Assembly (NCBI GenBank): GCA_964640225.1
Contig: CAZXFI010000003.1
Coordinates: 3,442 to 67,441 of the forward strand
Direction of reading: 5' to 3'
Origin: an uncultured archaeon
GTDB taxonomy: Archaea > Aenigmatarchaeota > Aenigmatarchaeia > PWEA01 > JAGHBM01
DNA: 64,000 bases
The translations under genes and the position numbers were made by a program. This document shows positions 15,451 to 57,153 of the stretch, in pieces (within the stretch, counting starts at the first letter, position 1; each line of letters starts with the position of its first letter). A model generated the notes under the pieces. The model worked only from the letters and a program-made list of their open reading frames with translations, searched no databases and was not told the DNA's origin.

Positions 15451-15727
15451 AAGTTATTTATTGTCGAAATAAATATAAATAAATGTCGTATATACCCTGA
15501 GACGTTTGTTTCTTATGGAGATTTTTTATTTTTAATAGGTTTATAATATAATATATAACAGTGTTATATCATAGTTAGTAGTAGTAATAAGAAATTCCAA
15601 AGGAAATAGAGGGGTGTCTTATTCACACCCCTTTATTTCACGTGCAAATTCACACCCCTTTATTTCACGTGCAGATATGTATTTATAAATTCAAACTCTA
15701 TATGAAAGAAAGGGGGGTTGGTTTCAT
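15451..15727. promoter_or_regulatory. Candidate replication origin (oriC) upstream of orc1/cdc6
   Basis: A ~130 bp AT-rich stretch (candidate DUE, 15.47-15.60 kb) is followed by ORB-like elements of the form dyad CACGTG + GAAA + G-string. All lie immediately 5' of orc1/cdc6. Confidence 0.55.
15622..15673. repeat. Tandem 25-nt ORB-like elements. An inverted half-site lies at 15611-15631.
   Basis: TTCACACCCCTTTATTTCACGTGCA occurs twice with a 27-bp period. On the bottom strand it reads CACGTGAAATAAAGGGGTGTGAA. GGGGTGT / ACACCCC form an inverted repeat. Confidence 0.6.
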
Positions 15728-16915
15728 TTGCAAAAATCTTTGGAGTCTATTTTCAATGGTTATGTAAATAAAAGAAAGATTTTTACTAACAAAAAAGCAA
15801 TAACAATTTCCTACAAACCCAACGAGCTTCCACACAGAAACAGGGAAATAGAGAGCGTGGCTTCAATTTTAGGCCCAAGTTTAAGTGGGGAGAAACCCTC
15901 CAATGTATTTATATTCGGGAAGCCCGGAACAGGCAAAACTGCCGTGATTCACCTAATATCAAAAAAACTCACTAAGATGAGCAAAAAAAACGTGGGCCTG
16001 TTTTATCTTAATTGTAAAATGAGGAATGTGGCCGACACGGAATATAGGCTAATCGCGCAGCTTGCAAGAGAGCTCGGTGAGTTCGTTCCTGTCACAGGTC
16101 TCCCAACGGACCATGTTTACAACCTGTTCTTCAAGGCCTTGGACAAACGAGGCGGGGTTATTATTCTAATACTGGATGAAATAGACGTGCTTGTTGAAAA
16201 AATAGGGGACAACTTCCTTTATAACTTGACAAGAATAAACGAGGAGCTCAATAACACCCAGGTAAGTATAGTGGGAATTTCAAACAACCTGTCCTTCACG
16301 AACGACATGGATCCCCGCGTGAAGTCTTCACTTTCTGAGGAGGAGCTAATATTCCACCCTTACAATGCAATACAGCTGCAGGATATTTTAAGAAAGAGGT
16401 CCGAGGGGGCCTTCAAGGAAAACACCTTGGAGCCGGGTGTGATAGAAAAGTGCGCGGGACTGGCTGCCCAGGAGCACGGGGACGCCAGGAGGGCGCTGGA
16501 CCTGCTCAGAGTGGCCGCCGAGATAGCGGAAAGAGAAAGTTCGGAAAGGGTTATGGAGAAGCACGTTGACATGGCGGAGTCAAAAATAGACAAGGACAGG
16601 ATAGTAGAAATAGTAAAATCCCAACCCAGGCAGAGCCAGGCAGTCTTGTGGAGTATAATGAAGACAGGAGGCGAGATTCAGACGGGGGATATATTTTCTG
16701 TTTACGAAAAAATATGCGCCGAAAACGGCCTCAAGCCCCTGACGCACAGAAGGGTTTCCGACCTGATAGCGGAGCTGGATATGCTGGGAATAATAAGTGC
16801 CAGGGTTGTCAGCAAGGGCAGGTATGGAAGGACGAGAATAGTCAAGATGAGCCTCCAGGATTCTCTTTTAGGCAAAATAAGGGAAATACTGCAGACAAAA
16901 TATTACTTCCAGTGA
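15728..16915 (+). CDS. orc1: Orc1/Cdc6 replication initiator
   Basis: AAA+ Walker A GKPGTGKTA, Walker B LDEIDV, and a C-terminal winged helix. Confidence 0.85.
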   Translation: MQKSLESIFNGYVNKRKIFTNKKAITISYKPNELPHRNREIESVASILGPSLSGEKPSNVFIFGKPGTGKTAVIHLISKKLTKMSKKNVGLFYLNCKMRNVADTEYRLIAQLARELGEFVPVTGLPTDHVYNLFFKALDKRGGVIILILDEIDVLVEKIGDNFLYNLTRINEELNNTQVSIVGISNNLSFTNDMDPRVKSSLSEEELIFHPYNAIQLQDILRKRSEGAFKENTLEPGVIEKCAGLAAQEHGDARRALDLLRVAAEIAERESSERVMEKHVDMAESKIDKDRIVEIVKSQPRQSQAVLWSIMKTGGEIQTGDIFSVYEKICAENGLKPLTHRRVSDLIAELDMLGIISARVVSKGRYGRTRIVKMSLQDSLLGKIREILQTKYYFQ

Positions 16916-18535: not shown

Positions 18536-18600
18536 AACAATATGCTGCAGAACAAATTAATTTTTATAGCTTAATGTTCATTACTTTGTTGGGGTTGAAA

Positions 18601-21267
18601 ATGGAGTTGCAGGTTCTTGACGCCGATTACACGTTGCTTAATGAAAAACCAATAGTAAGAGTTTTCTGCAAGGATTCTACGGGGAAGGTTTTTTGTGTTT
18701 TTAAAAGGGGTGTGGAACCTTACTTCTATGCGCTGGGGGAAACGGATGAGATAAAGGAGAAACTCAAGAAATTTGAAGGCGAAATACAGAGAGTGGAGGA
18801 AGTAGAAAGGTTCCTTCCGGTGGGCTACCAGGAAAAGAAAACAAAAGTCCTTAAAATAACCAACAGAAACCCCTCCAAGGTTCCCGCCATAAGGGAAACC
18901 CTGGGGTGCAGGGTTTTTGAGGCGGACATTCTTTTCAAGTACAGGTTCTTCTCGGACACAGGCATAAAAGGCATGAACTGGATAGAAGTTGAGGGAGATT
19001 TTGTCAACACAAACACGGTCTCTTGTACGGGAATTGAAGCAAAAAAGATAAAACCAAAAAACAAGGAGGAAAACATTCCTTTAAAAATTATGGCCCTGGA
19101 CATAGAGACAGAGGCGCCGTCGGACAGGATGCCGGAGCCGGACAAGGACGCGATAACCATGATAAGCCTGGCCTTCTCGGAGGATTACAAAAAGGAGAAA
19201 GACATGGTTATAGTCTCAAAACATGTCATGCTCAGGGACGACCAGAAAAATAATACAATATGCACGGATAACGAGAAAAAAATGCTGGAAAAACTCAAGG
19301 ATGTGATAAACGACTACGACCCCGATGTAATAACAGGATACAACATACAGAACTTTGACATGCCCTTTATTGTCGGCAGGATGGACAAGTCCGGCGTCAA
19401 GAAGGACTTCGGAAGGGCAAAGGACAAGAACGTTTTTTGCAGCAAGTATGGTCCAATCTCCAACACGAACATGTCAGGAAGAATAGTCTCCGATTCCTAC
19501 CAAATTATCAAAAAAGACTTCTCCTTCAAGAGCTACAAGCTGGACAACGTAGCGGAAAAGCTTCTGGGCAAGAAAAAAATTGACATAAGCTACAAAGATT
19601 TTGAAAGGCTGTGGAACGGGAGAAAAGAGGGTGTTCAAAAACTCATAGATTACGCGAGAAAAGACTCAATACTGGCGCTGGACCTTGTGAAAAAGAAGAA
19701 CCTCCTTGACAAGTACATAGCTCTTTCAAGGGTTTCCGGAATACTGCTTCAGGATGCTCTGAACGGGGGAGAGTCAATAAGAATAGAAAACGTTTTGCTC
19801 TCCGAGTTCAACAAGAGAGGCCTACTTTTCCCTCCCAAGCCAAGCGACAGGGAGGTTATGGAAAGGGCGAATAGAAGGGAGAAGAGCGGACTGAAGGGGG
19901 GGCTTGTTCTGGAGCCGAGGGCGGGACTTCATACCGACGGATGCATACTTGTTCTGGACTTCAAGAGCCTTTACCCAAGCATAATAAGGACTTACAATAT
20001 ATGCCCCACAACGCTTCTCAAAGAAAATTTGGATGTGGAATACAGCACTTCCCCGCTTGGAATAAAGTTCGTGAAAAGCAGCGTAAAGGAAGGCATACTT
20101 CCCCACGTGCTGGAGAACCTGATAAACCAGAGATCCCTTGTCAAGAAAAAAATGCACGAGGAAAGGGATGCGGACAAGAAGAGACTGCTTTACGCCAAAC
20201 AGTGGGCCCTTAAAATACTGGCCAACGCCTTTTACGGTTATACGGGGTATCTCAGGGCAAAAACCTACGTCATGGAGGTGGCCAACACAATAACCGCCTT
20301 TGGTAGGGAATTGCTGCAAAGAACCAGAAAGGAAATAACCGACATGGGTTACGAGGTTGTATACGGGGACACGGACTCGGTTTTTGTTAAAGCGGACACC
20401 AAGGACCTTGAAAAGGCGTACAAGCTGGGAAACCGGATAGTAAGCAAGATAGACTTACCCGGAAAACTTGTCCTGGAATTTGAGAAAATATTCCGCTCGT
20501 TTCTTATATTGACCAAAAAAAGGTACGCCGGATGGAGCTTTGAGAAAAACAACGGCGACTGGTCGGACAAAATAGAGATGAAGGGAATAGAAACTGTGAG
20601 GAGGGACTGGCCAGACCTTGTAACGGAGAGCATGAATGTGGTGCTTAACATAATCCTGAAGGAAGGCAACGTCAAAAAGGCGATAGCCTACGTCCAGGGA
20701 GAGGTTGACAAGCTCAACGCGGGAACAGTGAACCTTAAAAAGCTCGCGGTCACAAAGAGCATAACAAAAAGCGTGGACAGGTATGACGGCATGCTGCCGC
20801 ACATAGAGCTGGCCAAAAAGATAAGTCAGAGGAATCCCTCCCAGACTCCTTCCCCGGGGACCAGGATATCTTACATCATAATAAGGGGCAACCAGATGCT
20901 GAGTAAGAGAGCCGAAGAGCCCGAGTACATAAACGAGCACAAGCTGAACATAGACTCCTGTTATTACATAGAGAACCAGCTTTTGCCCCCACTTGAAAGA
21001 ATATTTTCCGTGATAGGCGTTGACAAGGGAGAGCTTATGGGCAAGGGGAGGCAGTGCAACCTGAAGGACATGCTGAAGCCCGCCAAGAGAAACCATAAAA
21101 TAGAGATACCCCCGGAAAAAATTATCGTAAAGTCCCCCGAAGGATTCGTCTGCAGGAACTGCAACAAGAATTTCAGAAGGGTCCCTCTTGTGGGTAGGTG
21201 TGATTGCGGGGGAGAGATTCTGGCCTTTGCTCGGGGGAATATGGGTTTTCTTATAAAACTAAATTAA
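18601..21267 (+). CDS. polB: Family B DNA polymerase (PolB) with a C-terminal Zn-ribbon extension
   Basis: Exo I LDIETE. Pol motifs DFKSLYPSII, KILANAFYGYTGY, YGDTDS. A ~85-aa tail after the thumb carries CRNC...CDCGG. ATG 18601 is preferred. Confidence 0.85.
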   Translation: MELQVLDADYTLLNEKPIVRVFCKDSTGKVFCVFKRGVEPYFYALGETDEIKEKLKKFEGEIQRVEEVERFLPVGYQEKKTKVLKITNRNPSKVPAIRETLGCRVFEADILFKYRFFSDTGIKGMNWIEVEGDFVNTNTVSCTGIEAKKIKPKNKEENIPLKIMALDIETEAPSDRMPEPDKDAITMISLAFSEDYKKEKDMVIVSKHVMLRDDQKNNTICTDNEKKMLEKLKDVINDYDPDVITGYNIQNFDMPFIVGRMDKSGVKKDFGRAKDKNVFCSKYGPISNTNMSGRIVSDSYQIIKKDFSFKSYKLDNVAEKLLGKKKIDISYKDFERLWNGRKEGVQKLIDYARKDSILALDLVKKKNLLDKYIALSRVSGILLQDALNGGESIRIENVLLSEFNKRGLLFPPKPSDREVMERANRREKSGLKGGLVLEPRAGLHTDGCILVLDFKSLYPSIIRTYNICPTTLLKENLDVEYSTSPLGIKFVKSSVKEGILPHVLENLINQRSLVKKKMHEERDADKKRLLYAKQWALKILANAFYGYTGYLRAKTYVMEVANTITAFGRELLQRTRKEITDMGYEVVYGDTDSVFVKADTKDLEKAYKLGNRIVSKIDLPGKLVLEFEKIFRSFLILTKKRYAGWSFEKNNGDWSDKIEMKGIETVRRDWPDLVTESMNVVLNIILKEGNVKKAIAYVQGEVDKLNAGTVNLKKLAVTKSITKSVDRYDGMLPHIELAKKISQRNPSQTPSPGTRISYIIIRGNQMLSKRAEEPEYINEHKLNIDSCYYIENQLLPPLERIFSVIGVDKGELMGKGRQCNLKDMLKPAKRNHKIEIPPEKIIVKSPEGFVCRNCNKNFRRVPLVGRCDCGGEILAFARGNMGFLIKLN

Positions 21268-25611: not shown

Positions 25612-27447
25612 ATGACGATTTACGAACCAAAGGTGATAAAAATGAGCAATAAAAAAAGACAAAAGATAGTACCGGACACTTCCGTAATCATAGACGAGAA
25701 GCTGTCTGAACTGATAGAGAAAGACGGCCTGAAGGCAGACATAATCATACCGGAAATGGTTCTGGATGAGCTGCAGAGCCAGGCTAACAGGGGTCTGGAG
25801 ATAGGATTCAACGGGCTTAACGAAATAAAGAAGCTGAGGGACATATCAAAAACCAACCCCGGTGTGAAGATAATGGCCACCGGAAGAAGACCCACCCCCG
25901 ACGAGGTTAAGCTTGCCAAGAAGGGAAGGATAGACGCCCTTATAAGGGACGTTGCCAAGAAGGAATCCGCGGTTCTTTACACGGAGGACCTTGTACAGTC
26001 TGAGGTGGCCAAGGCCGACGGCATTGAAGTGGTTTACATAGAGACAAAGTCCGACGAGGAACTGGTTTTTGAGAAATACCTCACGAAGAACACGATGTCC
26101 CTTCATTTCAAGGAAAAATCAAGGCCGATGGCCAAGATAGGAAAACCAGGAGAGGTGGAACTGAAGGAGTTGAGAAAGGAGATTTGCACCAAGGAGGAGC
26201 TTGAGAGAATGGCTTCGGACATAGTATATGCTACCAGGCGCAGGGAAGGGCAGTTTGAGATAAGCCGCAACGGAGCAGAGGTCGTGCAGCTGGGGGAGTA
26301 TAGGATTGCGATAACAAAACCTCCGTTTTCCAAGGACTACGAGATAACGATAATAAGGCCCATAGTAAAGCTAAAGCTGGAGGACTACGAACTCTCTGAA
26401 AAGCTTTTAAAAAGGCTAAAAAGAAAGGCCGAGGGAATTCTTATATCGGGACCGCCAGGCTCCGGGAAGTCAACCTTCGCGTCGGGCCTTGCGGAGTTCT
26501 ACCTGAAGCAGGGAAAGATAATAAAAACCCTGGAATCCCCAAGGGACCTGCAGGTGCCACCCGAGGTAACGCAGTACGCGCCGCTCAACGGCAGCATGTC
26601 AAACTCGGCAGACGTGCTTCTTCTTGTAAGGCCGGACTACACGATTTACGACGAGATGAGGAAGACCGCCGATTTCAGGGTTTTCTCGGACATGAGGCTA
26701 TCCGGAATAGGAATGGTCGGGGTGGTGCATGCAAGCGATCCTATTAACGCCGTGCAGAGGTTTATCGGAAGGACAGAGCTGGGAATGATACCCCACATAC
26801 TTGACACAATAGTTTTCATAAGGTACGGCAAGATAGAAAAGGTCTTTTCAATCTCCATGAAGGTGAAAGTCCCCACAGGGATGGTGGAGCAGGACCTGGC
26901 CAGGCCGGTTGTGGAGATAAGGGACTTTGAATCTGGAAAACTGGAGTATGAAATATACACCTACGGCGAGGAAAACGTGGTCTTGGAAGTCTCGGAAGAG
27001 AAGGACAAGCCCATGGAAAAGTTGGCAAAGGAAAGGATAAGAGAGGAAATAAAGAAGTACGACAAGTCCGCGGAAATAGAGTTCACGGGCGGAAAAAGAA
27101 TAGTGGCAAAGGTCGGCAACAAGGCAATACCGAAGCTTATAGGCAAGGAAGGAAAGACGATAGAGAAGATAGAGAAGAAGCTCGGGGTAAGCATAGACGT
27201 CCAGCCGAGAATAGAGAGCCTGGGAAAAGAGGTGAAATTTGACGTGGGCGAAAGCGGGGCCTATATAATATTTTCCTTCAAGAAAAATTTAAGAGGAGAA
27301 AACGCCAATACCTATGTGAAGGACGAGTATTTGTTCACGGCAACCGTGGGAAAGTCAGGTCAGATAAGGATTTCCAAGAATTCCGACCTGGGCAAGCAGA
27401 TAATAAACGCGCTTGCCACCAAGAAAAGAATCAGGGTATTTGTCTAG
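25612..27447 (+). CDS. PIN domain - PhoH-like ATPase - KH domain protein (COG1855-type)
   Basis: N-terminal PIN segment (IVPDTSVIID), P-loop GPPGSGKST, C-terminal KH (GKEGKTIEKIEKKLG). Confidence 0.7.
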   Translation: MTIYEPKVIKMSNKKRQKIVPDTSVIIDEKLSELIEKDGLKADIIIPEMVLDELQSQANRGLEIGFNGLNEIKKLRDISKTNPGVKIMATGRRPTPDEVKLAKKGRIDALIRDVAKKESAVLYTEDLVQSEVAKADGIEVVYIETKSDEELVFEKYLTKNTMSLHFKEKSRPMAKIGKPGEVELKELRKEICTKEELERMASDIVYATRRREGQFEISRNGAEVVQLGEYRIAITKPPFSKDYEITIIRPIVKLKLEDYELSEKLLKRLKRKAEGILISGPPGSGKSTFASGLAEFYLKQGKIIKTLESPRDLQVPPEVTQYAPLNGSMSNSADVLLLVRPDYTIYDEMRKTADFRVFSDMRLSGIGMVGVVHASDPINAVQRFIGRTELGMIPHILDTIVFIRYGKIEKVFSISMKVKVPTGMVEQDLARPVVEIRDFESGKLEYEIYTYGEENVVLEVSEEKDKPMEKLAKERIREEIKKYDKSAEIEFTGGKRIVAKVGNKAIPKLIGKEGKTIEKIEKKLGVSIDVQPRIESLGKEVKFDVGESGAYIIFSFKKNLRGENANTYVKDEYLFTATVGKSGQIRISKNSDLGKQIINALATKKRIRVFV

Positions 27448-27739
27448 CCCCAGTAGCTCAGTCTGGGAGGCCTTTCTTTTCACAAAAGAAAGCACTCGTG
27501 GATTTGGAAATGAAAAATTTCCAAACTTGAAAATGTTATTTTCAAGAAAGAAAATTTAGGTGCAACCTGTGGAAACGGGAAAGGTCTGGATATATAGAGC
27601 GACTGCCTCCTAAGCTTTTGGAGTAAGCAGTAGGTCCCGTGTTCGAAAACAGGCCCCTTTTAGAAAAAGGTTCCTGTACCTCCCAAAATCCGGAAATTCA
27701 AGAATTTCCCAAACGGGGAAAGTCACGGCTGGGGCGCCA
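27447..27739 (+). tRNA. tRNA-Arg (anticodon CCU) interrupted by three introns (D-loop, canonical 37/38, T-loop)
   Basis: Acceptor GCCCCAG/CTGGGGC, discriminator G, encoded CCA. D-stem GCTC/GAGC. Anticodon arm ACTGC-CTCCTA[13-nt intron]A-GCAGT. T-arm CCGTG-TTCGAA..[~75 nt]..CACGG. Inferred exon ends at 27469, 27612 and 27648. Confidence 0.6.
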
Positions 27740-44126: not shown

Positions 44127-44336
44127 ATGTGTCTTGCTATTCCCGCCAAGGTTGTCAAGGTTGAGGGAGAAAAGGCCGTGCTGGACGTTTTTGGAGAGAC
44201 GTCCGGGGCCAGGGTAAAAACTCCCAGACCAAAAGTCGGGGACTACGTTCTTGTCCAGTTCGGAACTGTAACAGACATACTGGATAAAAAAGCGGCTGGT
44301 GAAAGCCTGAAGGCATGGAAAGAAATTCTCCGCTAG
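44127..44336 (+). CDS. hypC: Hydrogenase assembly chaperone HypC
   Basis: Canonical MCLAIP N-terminus, 69 aa. Internal start within the track ORF 43719-44336. Confidence 0.8.
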   Translation: MCLAIPAKVVKVEGEKAVLDVFGETSGARVKTPRPKVGDYVLVQFGTVTDILDKKAAGESLKAWKEILR

Positions 44337-44701
44337 TCAAGATAAATTCTTTCCGGAACAATTTCCAACTCCCCCCTATATTTTTTTACAATGCCTTCCA
44401 CTTCCATTTCCATACCGTTGGTTATTTCTCCCGGATTCACTCTCAGCCTGCTCATGCTGCTTTCAAAAATCACAACCTTTATCTTTCCGATCCCGTCCGC
44501 GAGCGTGAAGAACAGGTGCTCGCCGGTATAATATCTTGACTGGACCTCTCCTGAAACAGAGACCAGAGTCCCCTCGTCGTCTTCCCCAATGTTCCCTATG
44601 TCCGTTACCCGCGCTTCCGCGAAATGCACCCCGGCGTAAAGCAGGCCCAAGCCCAGTATAGTGCACAACAAGCAAAGCTTCATGAGGTTTCTGTCTTCCA
44701 T
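44333..44701 (-). CDS. Membrane-anchored OB-fold protein (tRNA_anti-like)
   Basis: N-terminal TM helix plus an OB-like beta segment. Confidence 0.35.
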   Translation of the reverse strand: MEDRNLMKLCLLCTILGLGLLYAGVHFAEARVTDIGNIGEDDEGTLVSVSGEVQSRYYTGEHLFFTLADGIGKIKVVIFESSMSRLRVNPGEITNGMEMEVEGIVKKYRGELEIVPERIYLD

Positions 44702-45231
44702 AAAGGCACGCTCTTTATCTCCCTGTAAACCGGCCCCCGCGGCGTGAGGCGGCTTTCAAAAAGCACGATTTCCCTGACTTTCATTCTTCCCGCGCTGAAG
44801 TCCCTGAATTTTTCTATCTTCTCGTAAAGCTTTTTTCTGTCTTTCACGGACCTGGCTCGGCACAGGGTAAGGTGCGGCTTCACTCCCGACTTTCCCCCCA
44901 ACTCGGAAAACTTTAAATTAACCTCCCTTAAAAATTCCGTGAATTCTTCCCCGCCCTCGCCGATTCCCAGCCACACGACTTTAGCGCGGGACTCTCTGGG
45001 GAAAACTCCCAGTCCCCCAACTTCCACGTAAAACTCCCTTTCTTCAATGGAATCCATGAGTTCCTTGACTTTCTCCACCTCAATGTCCCCGAGCTCGCCG
45101 AAGAACCTGACAGTCCAGTGAAGGTTATCGGGCTCCACCGTTTTCACCCCCCTCATTTCAAATTCATTAATAAGCCGGGCCGCATTTTTTCTGACTTCTT
45201 CGGAGACCCTTACCGCAAGAAAGCACCTCAA
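44680..45231 (-). CDS. thpR: RNA 2',3'-cyclic phosphodiesterase (2H family, ThpR/LigT-like)
   Basis: Two H-x-T-x motifs (HWTV, HLTL). Confidence 0.75.
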   Translation of the reverse strand: MRCFLAVRVSEEVRKNAARLINEFEMRGVKTVEPDNLHWTVRFFGELGDIEVEKVKELMDSIEEREFYVEVGGLGVFPRESRAKVVWLGIGEGGEEFTEFLREVNLKFSELGGKSGVKPHLTLCRARSVKDRKKLYEKIEKFRDFSAGRMKVREIVLFESRLTPRGPVYREIKSVPLWKTETS

Positions 45232-49146: not shown

Positions 49147-49149
49147 GTC

Positions 49150-49560
49150 CCGGGAATCACAAACCTTCCAGTCTCACATTAACTCTCACATTTGAAACAA
49201 AAGACTAACATTTACTCCCAAAAACCCGAAAAACCTCACTTTTCTCCCCGGGTTTTCAAACCTCACTCTTTTCCTCCCTAATAAGGACCCAAAAACACTC
49301 ACATTTCCTTTCTTAACTCATCTAAATGAACTTGAAGCGGGTTGTTTACCGGATAAATTAGCGGATGGCTCACATTTTGCATATTATCCTGCGAAAAATT
49401 CCAATTTTCATCCTTCTCAATGGCCAATATAATCGGGTTTATAGGGCTAAATACTCACATTTGGCCTAAATAGCCTAGTTTAACTTCCACAACCCCGTGT
49501 TTTATTCAGAATGATTAACTCACATAACCAATCCAGTTCCGTCAAATCTCTCCAGCGCTT
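49150..49560. repeat. Non-coding array of roughly 8 CTCAC(A/T)TT(T) iterons
   Basis: CTCACATTT-like 9-mers recur at irregular spacing. No ORF over 60 aa on either strand. Confidence 0.5.
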
Positions 49561-49903
49561 AAAACCTTCACGTAAGGTATTCACATACTATTCACATATC
49601 CTTCACATTAATACCTTCACGTTCACGTGAACGCACAATATTGCATCATTAATCAAAACTTTCCATAAAACCCTTCACAAAGTATTCACGTGAACCTTCA
49701 CGTTTTAATAAAAATTTTCACAAACCCTTCACATGATATTCACATATTATTCACAAATTCACAAAACCTTCACAAAATATTCACGTGAAATTCACGTGAA
49801 GGTGTGAATAAATATAAGGAAGATTTGTCACAAATTAACCTTCACATTTAAATATTCACGTGAACTTATTTAAGGTAAGTAAGCTTCACGTGAAGGTGTT
49901 TTA
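49561..49903. repeat. Dense array of TTCAC(G/A)T / palindromic TTCACGTGAA (mini-ORB-like) iterons
   Basis: About 20 copies of TTCAC(R)T. 6 perfect TTCACGTGAA palindromes. Two TTCACGTGAAGGTGT elements next to the downstream gene. Confidence 0.6.
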
Positions 49904-51040
49904 GTGATAGAAGACTACGAAAAAAACCTTGAAAACTGGCTTAATCGGCTGAACTGGAAAGAAAACCCCTTCACGCTGAAAATAGACCCCCTGCTTTACG
50001 TGGGCTACCAGGACCAGCTAAAGCGCCTTATAAACCACATACGCGAGGGGCACAAGGTCGCCCTGATAACAGGCTCAACGGGTTCGGGGAAGACTACCAC
50101 TCTAAAGCTCATGGAAAGGGACTTGGACAGCAGTTACGAGGTTATTTACATCTCCAAACCCCCCAGAAAGGAGGATTTGGTGGACATATTCCTTTCCAGA
50201 TTCAGACCTTCCATTCTTCAGAGAATTTTCGGCGTGAATGTGAGCCTTCACAACCTTCACGTGTACCTGAACAAAAAACTGGGCCAGAAAAGGCTCCTTG
50301 TGCTCCTGGACGAGACTCACGAGGCGGATGTGGATGTCTTGAAGTGGTTCAGGACGCTTTGCGACCAAATAGAGGGAATGCAGCTTATAATGGCGGGATT
50401 GTCCACGGTTGATGTTGTTCTGAAGGACATAGAAACGCTAAGAAGCAGGATAATAACCCATATAGAACTCTTAAACCTTACACGTGAAGATTCACGTGAA
50501 CTTATAAAGAAAAGGATAGAGAGCGTGGGAGGCAACGACATAAGCCCCTTCACGGACAACTGCGTGAAGGAAATATACCAGATTACGGGGGGATTTCCCA
50601 GGGAAGTGCTTAAAATATGCGACAAGCTTGTTCAGAAGGCGATTGAGGAGAACAGGATGGAGATAAACCGGACGGAAGGTCTTAAATGTGAGACTTCGGA
50701 GCCCGGGGAGCCGGAAGAGGCTGTACCGGCATATTCAGGGGGCCCGGAGACCGCGGAAAAGGAAGAGAAGGGGCCCCCGAGCAAGGATTTCGTGAAGAGT
50801 CTGCCCTACAAGCAGAGAAAAATAATACTTCTTCTGTCGGAGGAAGGTGAGCTATTTCCGTCTGAACTGGCGGAGAAACTGGGGATTGAAAAATACAAGT
50901 CCAAGCAGCATGCCGTCAGATCGGTCAACAACATACTCAAGAGGCTCTCCGGAATGGGATACGTGGACAGGAAGCCGAGGGGAAAGGGGTTTGTCTATTC
51001 CCTGAACCTGAAGACAAAAAATCTGCTTATAAAGAGCTGA
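49904..51040 (+). CDS. AAA+ ATPase (ExeA/AAA_22-like, ORC-related) with a C-terminal winged helix
   Basis: ENPF motif, Walker A GSTGSGKTT, Walker B LLDETHE, C-terminal wHTH. GTG start after an AAGGTG purine tract. Confidence 0.6.
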   Translation: MIEDYEKNLENWLNRLNWKENPFTLKIDPLLYVGYQDQLKRLINHIREGHKVALITGSTGSGKTTTLKLMERDLDSSYEVIYISKPPRKEDLVDIFLSRFRPSILQRIFGVNVSLHNLHVYLNKKLGQKRLLVLLDETHEADVDVLKWFRTLCDQIEGMQLIMAGLSTVDVVLKDIETLRSRIITHIELLNLTREDSRELIKKRIESVGGNDISPFTDNCVKEIYQITGGFPREVLKICDKLVQKAIEENRMEINRTEGLKCETSEPGEPEEAVPAYSGGPETAEKEEKGPPSKDFVKSLPYKQRKIILLLSEEGELFPSELAEKLGIEKYKSKQHAVRSVNNILKRLSGMGYVDRKPRGKGFVYSLNLKTKNLLIKS

Positions 51041-56711: not shown

Positions 56712-56960
56712 TATATTTTTAAAAGATTTTTTTGTAAAATATATAATATAAAAGTTATAATTAAATAGTTATTTTAAATAATATATTTTACATTATATAT
56801 ATTATACAATATAGAAAAAATCACACAAAAATGTGAGACTTCAGGACCCAGACTCACAAGCCAAAAGAGCCCAGAATGCAAAATATGAGGTTTTAAGGCC
56901 TTTTTGATGCGTTATTAAAGTATCTTTATATAATTAAACTACCAAGAAAAAAAGAGGAAA
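56712..56960. repeat. Second AT-rich island sharing the ATATATTTTA(T/C)A motif
   Basis: Low-complexity AT DNA upstream of tRNA-Gln. Confidence 0.4.
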
Positions 56961-56961
56961 T

Positions 56962-57131
56962 AGCCCCGTAGTCTAGTGGCCAAAGGAAGTTGACATATAC
57001 GAGGTATATGTTTGTGCAATCTTTCGGTTATGGATGGGAGGCTCTGGACCTCCAGACCCAGGTTCGAATAAGCTTTTTTCTAAAAAGCTTAAGCAAAAAC
57101 TTAAAAAACGAGAGTCCTGGCGGGGCTACCA
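56962..57131 (+). tRNA. tRNA-Gln (anticodon CUG) with two non-canonical introns (D-arm and T-loop)
   Basis: Acceptor AGCCCCG/CGGGGCT, discriminator A, encoded CCA. Anticodon arm GGAGG-CTCTGGA-CCTCC at 57037-57053. T-arm CCAGG-TTCGAAT-[46-nt intron 57070-57115]-CCTGG. A ~48-nt insert sits between the D-stem halves. Confidence 0.6.
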
Positions 57132-57153
57132 TTTGTTTTAAGGGGGTACAAAA

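Follow-up and report, generated by a model that had tools for sequence, protein, structure and literature searches.

A probable tRNA-Gln(CUG) gene with bulge-helix-bulge-type introns in its D-loop and T-loop in an Aenigmarchaeota-like archaeon

Can a tRNA gene that is broken once in the D-arm by a 48-nt insert and again in the T-loop by a 46-nt insert still give a tRNA? The question is posed by positions 56962-57131 (+ strand) of a 64,000-nucleotide stretch of DNA from an uncultured archaeon (the window, meaning the whole stretch that was analysed), where an earlier note, made from the sequence alone, had proposed a tRNA-Gln(CUG) with two non-canonical introns. We conclude, with a probability of about 90%, that the locus is a functional archaeal tRNA-Gln(CUG) gene with two introns of the bulge-helix-bulge (BHB) type at non-canonical positions. 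The gene anatomy and the pairing at its splice junctions lead to this view, and a comparison with related loci carries it.

Exons, introns and splice-junction motifs

Read along the sequence, the acceptor stem, anticodon arm and T-arm of a tRNA-Gln are all present where the earlier note had placed them. AGCCCCG (56962-56968) pairs with CGGGGCT (57121-57127) in the acceptor stem, followed by discriminator A57128 and a genomically encoded CCA (57129-57131), and the anticodon arm GGAGG-CTCTGGA-CCTCC occupies 57037-57053, with anticodon CTG. The other two arms are split. CCAGG (57058-57062) and TTCGAAT (57063-57069) of the T-arm find the matching CCTGG only at 57116-57120, and the D-stem halves GTCT (56971-56974) and GGAT (57032-57035) are far apart because a 48-nt insert follows the D-loop and precedes the 3' strand of the D-stem. 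Both inserts and their hairpins are as described before: the T-loop insert of 46 nt (57069-57114) contains AAGCTTTTT/AAAAAGCTT (57070-57078 and 57082-57090), which begins at intron nucleotide 2, and the insert between the D-stem halves (56984-57031) has ACATATAC/GTATATGT as its apical hairpin. The resulting features, with intron positions in Sprinzl numbering as assigned in this analysis, are:

56925-56933, + strand: TATA-box-like element TTTATATAA, read off the sequence, its centre about 33 nt 5' of the mature end
56962-56983, + strand: exon 1, with acceptor 5' strand AGCCCCG, U8 A9, D-stem GTCT and D-loop AGTGGCCAA
56984-57031, + strand: intron 1, 48 nt, at the D-loop/D-stem junction (about 21/22), from the BHB scan
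57032-57068, + strand: exon 2, with GGAT (D-stem 3' strand), G26, the anticodon arm, variable region AGAC, CCAGG and TTCGAA (54-59)
57069-57114, + strand: intron 2, 46 nt, in the T-loop at 59/60, from the BHB scan
57115-57131, + strand: exon 3, with T60, CCTGG (T-stem 3' strand), CGGGGCT (acceptor 3' strand), discriminator A and CCA
57132-57139, + strand: T-rich tract TTTGTTTT, directly 3' of the CCA, from the sequence

The element TTTATATAA is a putative archaeal promoter of the gene, because its spacing matches the usual archaeal distance from TATA box to start. At the other end, TTTGTTTT is likely an archaeal transcription stop, and a terminator-like scan picked up the acceptor/T-stem region together with this T tail. 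As judged from sequence, the identity as tRNA-Gln rests on the anticodon, on the loop CUCUGGA with U33, on the A1-U72 pair and on full-length homology to the tRNA-Gln genes of relatives; the variable region, AGAC, is short, as in class I tRNAs. An A1-U72 first pair is a mark of archaeal tRNA-Gln and of its recognition by GatDE.

The geometry of archaeal BHB motifs is well established. We scanned for it by requiring of each strand a 4-nt central helix, a 3-nt bulge cut after its second nucleotide, and a flanking helix, a description that agrees with PMC3239211. In each region, one solution also restored the tRNA. Intron 1 is of the HBh' type: its central helix pairs GGCC (56978-56981) with GGTT (57026-57029) over 4 bp, the bulges are AA/A and AT/G (the slash marks the cut), and the inner helix h' is GGAAG/CTTTC (5 bp). 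Intron 2 is of the hBH type, with a 4-bp central helix of TTCG (57063-57066) and CGAG (57109-57112), bulges AA/T and AG/T, and the 5-bp T-stem as outer helix. Thus, BHB geometry, on which the note had made its proposal depend, is present at both junctions, in the relaxed forms HBh' (D-loop) and hBH (59/60). An alternative BHB at 56981/57034 has a 4-bp helix and was rejected for removing the 3' strand of the D-stem; many T/A-rich pseudo-BHBs inside the introns were also rejected, as none restores the tRNA.

When the introns were shuffled with the junctions held fixed, a complete 4-bp central helix arose with P = 0.013 (D-loop) and P = 0.020 (T-loop). A fold forced to contain both BHB motifs and the tRNA stems reached −51.7 kcal/mol, versus −55.7 kcal/mol for the unconstrained minimum free energy (MFE) fold. 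With 4 kcal/mol between them, a splicing-competent fold should be accessible.

Standard finders were silent here. ARAGORN called no tRNA in the whole 64-kb window, Rfam gave no match at gathering thresholds across the window and no tRNA match at E ≤ 10 in the local region, and the unspliced tRNA-Gln sequence drew no ARAGORN call even with the intron option. Genes with non-canonical introns are expected to be missed, so this silence is not evidence against a tRNA. The spliced product of 76 nt, AGCCCCGTAGTCTAGTGGCCAAGGATGGGAGGCTCTGGACCTCCAGACCCAGGTTCGAATCCTGGCGGGGCTACCA, forms a perfect cloverleaf and was called as tRNA-Gln(ctg) with an ARAGORN score of 122.6; every stem is paired, and U8, A14, G18 G19, U33, UUCGAAU, A58 and the encoded CCA are all kept. 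We also scored 11,745 distinct splice variants, each lacking one segment of the D region and one of the T region, and thousands were called tRNA-Gln(ctg) at 122-124. ARAGORN is therefore unable to separate neighbouring junctions, which are set by the BHB geometry and, independently, by exon homology. The covariance-model scoring that the note had asked for comes through an intron-less relative (L013 below), which scored 60.7 bits against the Rfam tRNA model RF00005 (gathering threshold 29) and differs from the window's spliced product at three positions. These include a compensatory D-stem change, G12-C23 / C12-G23, whose two members straddle the D-loop intron site. The spliced product itself scores as a full tRNA-Gln(CUG) in ARAGORN.

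Relatives, a companion gene and rival explanations

We regard the comparison with syntenic relatives as decisive for the tRNA-Gln reading. A metagenome scan queried with the exon-2 sequence returned five further tRNA-Gln genes (L011-L015). Together with two loci in metagenome-assembled genomes (MAGs), they differ in their introns as follows:

L013: no D-loop intron; no T-loop 59/60 intron
L011: D-loop intron present; no T-loop 59/60 intron
L012: D-loop intron of 30 nt at CCAA/GCAT; T-loop 59/60 intron of 40 nt
L014, 105-367, − strand: D-loop intron at about 15/16; T-loop 59/60 intron of 162 nt
L015, 2179-2335, + strand: no D-loop intron; T-loop 59/60 intron of 84 nt
L001, 14252-14389, − strand, syntenic tRNA-Gln(CUG) of the closest MAG: D intron only, at about 15/16; no T-loop intron
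L003, more distant MAG: 13-nt intron at CCAA/GGAT and a canonical 37/38 intron

Where a relative lacks an intron, its exons meet exactly at the predicted join. In L015, exons 1 and 2 run uninterrupted as AGCCCCGTAGTCTAGTGGCCAAGGATG, the identical 22 nt of exon 1 continuing straight into GGATG. Likewise, the predicted join of exons 2 and 3, GGTTCGAATCCTGG, is uninterrupted in L001, L011 and L013, and in L001 the two exons are contiguous as GGTTCGAATCCTGGCGGGGCTACCA, which is the predicted splice product. The 32-nt stretch of exon 2 at 57037-57068 is identical in L011-L014; in L015 it has a single difference, at position 33 of the anticodon loop.

The introns at each site are unrelated in sequence and length among the relatives, and the 4-bp helix is kept. 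At 59/60 the pairing partner of UUCG is CGAG in the window and CGAA, UGAG and UGAA among L012, L014 and L015; at 21/22 the partner of GGCC is GGUU in the window, GGCC in L012 and GGCU in L003. All four central-helix pairs formed in nine of the ten junctions tested. Nearly every tRNA supplies the T-stem and U54 U55 C56 R57, which makes 59/60 a natural hot spot: with the T-stem and UUCR preset, an intron needs only a 3'-end YGAR plus two nucleotides.

By tblastn, L001, L014 and L015 match the gene order of the window with protein identities of 49-90%. The shared order is a helix-turn-helix (HTH) protein, a 156-aa open reading frame (ORF) and tRNA-Gln, with DUF498 next in L001 and L015; the short L014 contig stops before the DUF498 position. 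This shared order makes the three loci orthologous to the window's tRNA-Gln. The four orthologous loci carry four intron sets: 21/22 and 59/60 (window), about 15/16 (L001), about 15/16 and 59/60 (L014), and 59/60 (L015). As we read these loci, they show rapid intron gain and loss at one tRNA-Gln gene.

Two further features of the relatives stood out. The anticodon loop of L001 and L015 is CCCTGGA, in which C33 replaces a near-universal U, whereas the loop is the usual CTCTGGA in the window and in L014. Since C33 is seen in two independent assemblies, it may be real; it may be a tolerated variant or a substrate for C-to-U editing. L015 also repeats 12 nt of the tRNA-Gln 5' end (AGCCCCGTAGTC) at 2046-2057, 133 nt upstream of the gene, perhaps left over from a partial duplication or from an integration event.

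One more hidden tRNA gene lies in the window. Searching all of it for generic acceptor stems gave far too much noise until the search was limited to intergenic gaps and a T-arm was required as well; this screen left only the tRNA-Gln gene and a tRNA-Arg(CCU) gene with three introns:

27447-27739, + strand: tRNA-Arg(CCU)
27467-27593, + strand: D-loop intron, 127 nt, HBh' with an 11-bp h'
27613-27625, + strand: canonical 37/38 intron, 13 nt, strict BHB
27648-27722, + strand: T-loop 59/60 intron, 75 nt, hBH with the T-stem as outer helix, central helix 3/4 bp

Spliced to 78 nt, tRNA-Arg scored 122.9 in ARAGORN; unspliced, it was not called. The observation that two unrelated tRNAs share a T-loop intron position therefore stands, with a 59/60 intron in both. 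The note had argued from it for a genuine lineage trait rather than a pseudogene, and that argument is now supported by the tRNA-Arg 59/60 intron, by introns that keep their BHB in four homologues with 59/60 and/or 21/22 introns from other assemblies (L003, L012, L014 and L015), and by the synteny of three loci. Separately, the tRNA-Arg gene begins on the last base of the stop codon (27445-27447) that ends the upstream PIN-ATPase-KH ORF, which implies either a promoter inside that ORF or co-transcription of the two.

Could the locus nonetheless be an old tRNA-Gln gene that two unrelated insertions have inactivated and that gives no functional tRNA? Such a pseudogene would fit the rejection of the locus by standard finders, the AT-rich and low-complexity inserts, and the relaxed form of both BHB motifs. 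We consider it very unlikely, since the exons are intact, all stems pair and the conserved positions are all present. Decay would also not lead us to expect an exon 2 identical over 32 nt in genes of other assemblies, a compensatory D-stem change relative to L013, inserts that share the two sites in several relatives, differ in sequence and always keep the 4-bp BHB helix, or the same architecture in the only other tRNA gene of the window. Even less probable is an enlarged tRNA in which the inserts stay on after maturation and expand the D- and T-loops, although the inserts do form stable hairpins of their own. The tertiary core of tRNA is held by the contacts G18-Psi55 and G19-C56, and some 46-48 extra nucleotides on each side would disrupt this D-loop/T-loop core. 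Orthologues without one or the other insert have otherwise identical exons, which argues for the same mature RNA, and only recognition by an endonuclease readily explains why the pairing of intron 3' ends with UUCG or GGCC is conserved.

Two Logan contigs are broken within intron 2, as might be expected if the inserts came from faulty assembly or binning (a chimeric join or a misassembled repeat). We give this no more credence than retention of the inserts: the same contigs, from SRR7048225 and SRR7048220 (L009 and L010), are identical to the window over the 3' part of intron 2, exon 3 and the downstream gene, and independent MAGs and metagenome contigs have the same gene architecture. Both contigs (positions 1-21 of each) begin exactly at the palindromic hairpin AAGCTTTTTTCTAAAAAGCTT (window 57070-57090), and palindromic hairpins are typical break points of de Bruijn graphs. 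The breaks are thus most likely assembly breaks at an inverted repeat, which is a better explanation of contig ends at the start of intron 2 than an intron-less allele, and they show how such tRNA genes fragment in short-read assemblies.

Other kinds of disrupted gene were rejected as well. Group I or group II self-splicing introns, whose catalytic core takes up several hundred nucleotides, do not suit inserts of only 46 and 48 nt without an Rfam intron match; apart from one chance match of 14 bits, no Rfam family matched the inserts at gathering thresholds or at E ≤ 10, nor did Rfam recognise any known RNA, such as a C/D-box RNA, within them. A split or permuted tRNA gene is ruled out by the three exons, which are colinear on one strand within 170 nt in total.

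Several points do weigh against a spliced, functional gene. Both of its BHB motifs are relaxed and neither is a strict hBHBh'; the T-loop intron is without an inner helix h', and in the D-loop intron nothing more than an offset 3-bp remnant of the D-stem closes the 3' bulge. The T-loop BHB is not present in the unconstrained MFE fold. The covariance-model quality of the window's own product is presumed from the 60.7 bits of L013. Finally, Pfam matched neither EndA (tRNA_int_endo) nor RtcB in the roughly 40 of 66 window ORFs that were scanned. Set against the exon conservation and intron turnover among relatives, we still find ordinary, protein-dependent archaeal splicing at non-canonical sites to be the best explanation of the locus.

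Predicted processing, intron mobility and the surrounding window

We infer the transcription, cleavage and ligation of this tRNA, and the type of enzyme involved, from its sequence. The TATA-like element would drive transcription of a precursor of about 180 nt, which would fold to give a relaxed BHB at each exon-intron junction. In the T-loop, the T-stem would serve as outer helix, UUCG (54-57) would pair with CGAG near the intron 3' end, and the splice sites would lie in the 3-nt bulges; in the D-loop, G18 G19 C20 C20a would pair with GGUU near the intron 3' end, and the 5-bp intron helix would close the 5' bulge. An EndA of broad specificity could then cut the four bulges to leave 2',3'-cyclic phosphate and 5'-OH ends, and an RtcB-type ligase could join the three exons. 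RNase P would remove the 5' leader, the CCA being already encoded by the gene, and the finished tRNA-Gln would be 76 nt long, with A1 paired to U72. Relaxed motifs at both junctions call for a splicing endonuclease of broad specificity in this organism; (alpha-beta)2, epsilon2 and loop-bearing alpha4 enzymes are of that kind. The window also encodes a LigT-like protein of the 2H phosphoesterase / 2'-5' RNA ligase family (44680-45231, − strand), adjoined by a gene for a small OB-fold (tRNA_anti-codon domain) protein (44333-44701). The LigT-like protein could act on 2',3'-cyclic phosphate RNA ends from splicing.

Do these introns move? It is possible, at what we would put at somewhat below even odds, that the introns of this Aenigmarchaeota-like clade form an actively mobile family that spreads from one tRNA gene to another and from site to site (D-loop and 59/60). 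One hint is that the four syntenic tRNA-Gln loci, whose neighbouring proteins are 68-90% identical, each have an intron set of their own. Another is a 21-nt hairpin module, CTTTCTTTTCACAAAAGAAAG, that is identical in the D-loop intron of the window's tRNA-Arg (27472-27492) and in the T-loop intron of the L015 tRNA-Gln (2243-2263), which suggests a shared or mobile intron module. In L012, both the Gln(CUG) gene (1687-1829, + strand) and a second, long multi-intron tRNA gene (52-356, − strand), possibly of class II, have 40-nt introns at 59/60. These are 70% identical (28/40), a level reached in 0 of 20,000 shuffles, which indicates that they are paralogous between genes. In both window genes, L014 and L015, the 59/60 intron has a T-run/A-run hairpin from its second nucleotide on, and in L012 the hairpin begins a few nucleotides deeper; this hairpin may serve recognition or mobility as a functional module. 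If the family is indeed mobile, one orthologous locus would have seen very recent gain and loss, the intron transposition of Thermoproteales would extend to DPANN, and these archaea would offer a tractable comparative system for the spread of BHB introns.

The neighbouring genes of the window are archaeal and include RadA, an RPA-like protein, alanyl-tRNA synthetase and the ribosomal proteins P0/P1. The best matches of the synthetase are in MAGs of uncultured archaea, one at 72% identity, three MAGs labelled Aenigm(at)archaeota and others at 47-52%, and a Micrarchaeota MAG at 43%. Going by the labels of these matches, the host is most likely a DPANN archaeon related to Aenigmarchaeota.

Elsewhere in the window, two tandem 27-nt repeats (ATTCACACCCCTTTATTTCACGTGCA; 15621-15674) stand just upstream of an Orc1/Cdc6 gene (15728-16915, + strand) with Cdc6_lid and Cdc6_C domains, and a family-B DNA polymerase gene follows at 18574-21267. 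The ATTCACACCCCTTTATTTCACGTGCA repeats may be origin-recognition boxes of a replication origin. A 757-nt intergenic region (49147-49903) is dense with direct and inverted TTCAC(G/A)/TTCACGTGAA motifs and sits upstream of an archaeal AAA ATPase gene (49904-51040; AAA_22/ATPase_2); its core, TTCACGTG, also occurs in the repeats beside Orc1/Cdc6.

Significance and comparison with known systems

Both tRNA genes of the window are invisible to ARAGORN and to Rfam/Infernal. With such genes hidden, MAGs of this lineage will appear to lack tRNAs, lowering completeness and quality scores and misleading inferences about decoding. Kaneta et al. reported that DPANN lineages with a loop-bearing EndA show more tRNA gene disruption and that tRNAs missing from DPANN genomes point to undetected disrupted genes (PMC5829648), a remark that the apparent tRNA loss here fits. 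The Aenigmarchaeota-like lineage thereby joins the archaea with heavily disrupted tRNA genes, and a broad-specificity endonuclease is predicted for it; its orthologous loci with differing introns are raw material for studying gain, loss and possible transposition of BHB introns. Our literature search turned up no paper describing tRNA introns in Aenigmarchaeota. T-loop introns are not new to science and no new mechanism is called for, since 59/60 introns and multi-intron tRNAs are already documented; the current understanding of tRNA splicing is unchanged.

The closest known case is the pre-tRNA-Cys(GCA) of ARMAN-2 (Candidatus Micrarchaeum acidiphilum), interrupted at 59/60 by a 13-nt intron (Fujishima et al. 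2011, PMC3239211). This hBH intron is cleaved in vitro by the organism's own epsilon2 endonuclease (PMC3239211). The window gene shares with it the 59/60 site, the relaxed hBH (BHL) motif, the T-stem as outer helix, a DPANN host and the failure of standard finders. In contrast to ARMAN-2, the window intron is 46 nt long with its own 9-bp hairpin and lies in a tRNA-Gln(CUG) that has a second, D-loop intron; moreover, its host is Aenigmarchaeota-like rather than a member of the Micrarchaeota, and the gene is known from sequence alone. The ARMAN-2 pre-tRNA-Pro(GGG) has two T-loop introns, at 53/54 and 59/60, which jointly form a strict hBHBh' (PMC3239211). It, too, is a DPANN gene that is interrupted at 59/60 and at a further non-canonical site, whereas the window gene has one D-loop and one T-loop intron, both relaxed.

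Thermoproteales tRNA genes contain up to three BHB introns each, with evidence of intron transposition (PMC4033280), and 20/21, 22/23 and 59/60 are listed among their known non-canonical sites (PMC4090602). Intron sequences common to different tRNA genes have been read as transposition in this order (PMC4090602, PMC4033280), and its multi-intron tRNAs go back to Sugahara et al. 2008 and Fujishima et al. 2010, as these are cited in PMC4090602 and PMC4033280. Multiple introns, D-arm and 59/60 sites and relaxed hBH/HBh' motifs recur in the window gene. The Thermoproteales, however, are TACK Crenarchaeota with an (alpha-beta)2 EndA that has the crenarchaeal loop, whereas the window host groups with DPANN, and their D-arm sites are 20/21 and 22/23 rather than 21/22 as numbered here.

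Split and permuted tRNA genes are known from Nanoarchaeum equitans, Caldivirga maquilingensis and Thermofilum pendens. The window gene would share with them the same pathway of BHB, EndA and ligase and a place in the continuum of disrupted tRNA genes. Unlike theirs, its exons lie in one 170-nt transcription unit, with no trans-splicing or permutation.

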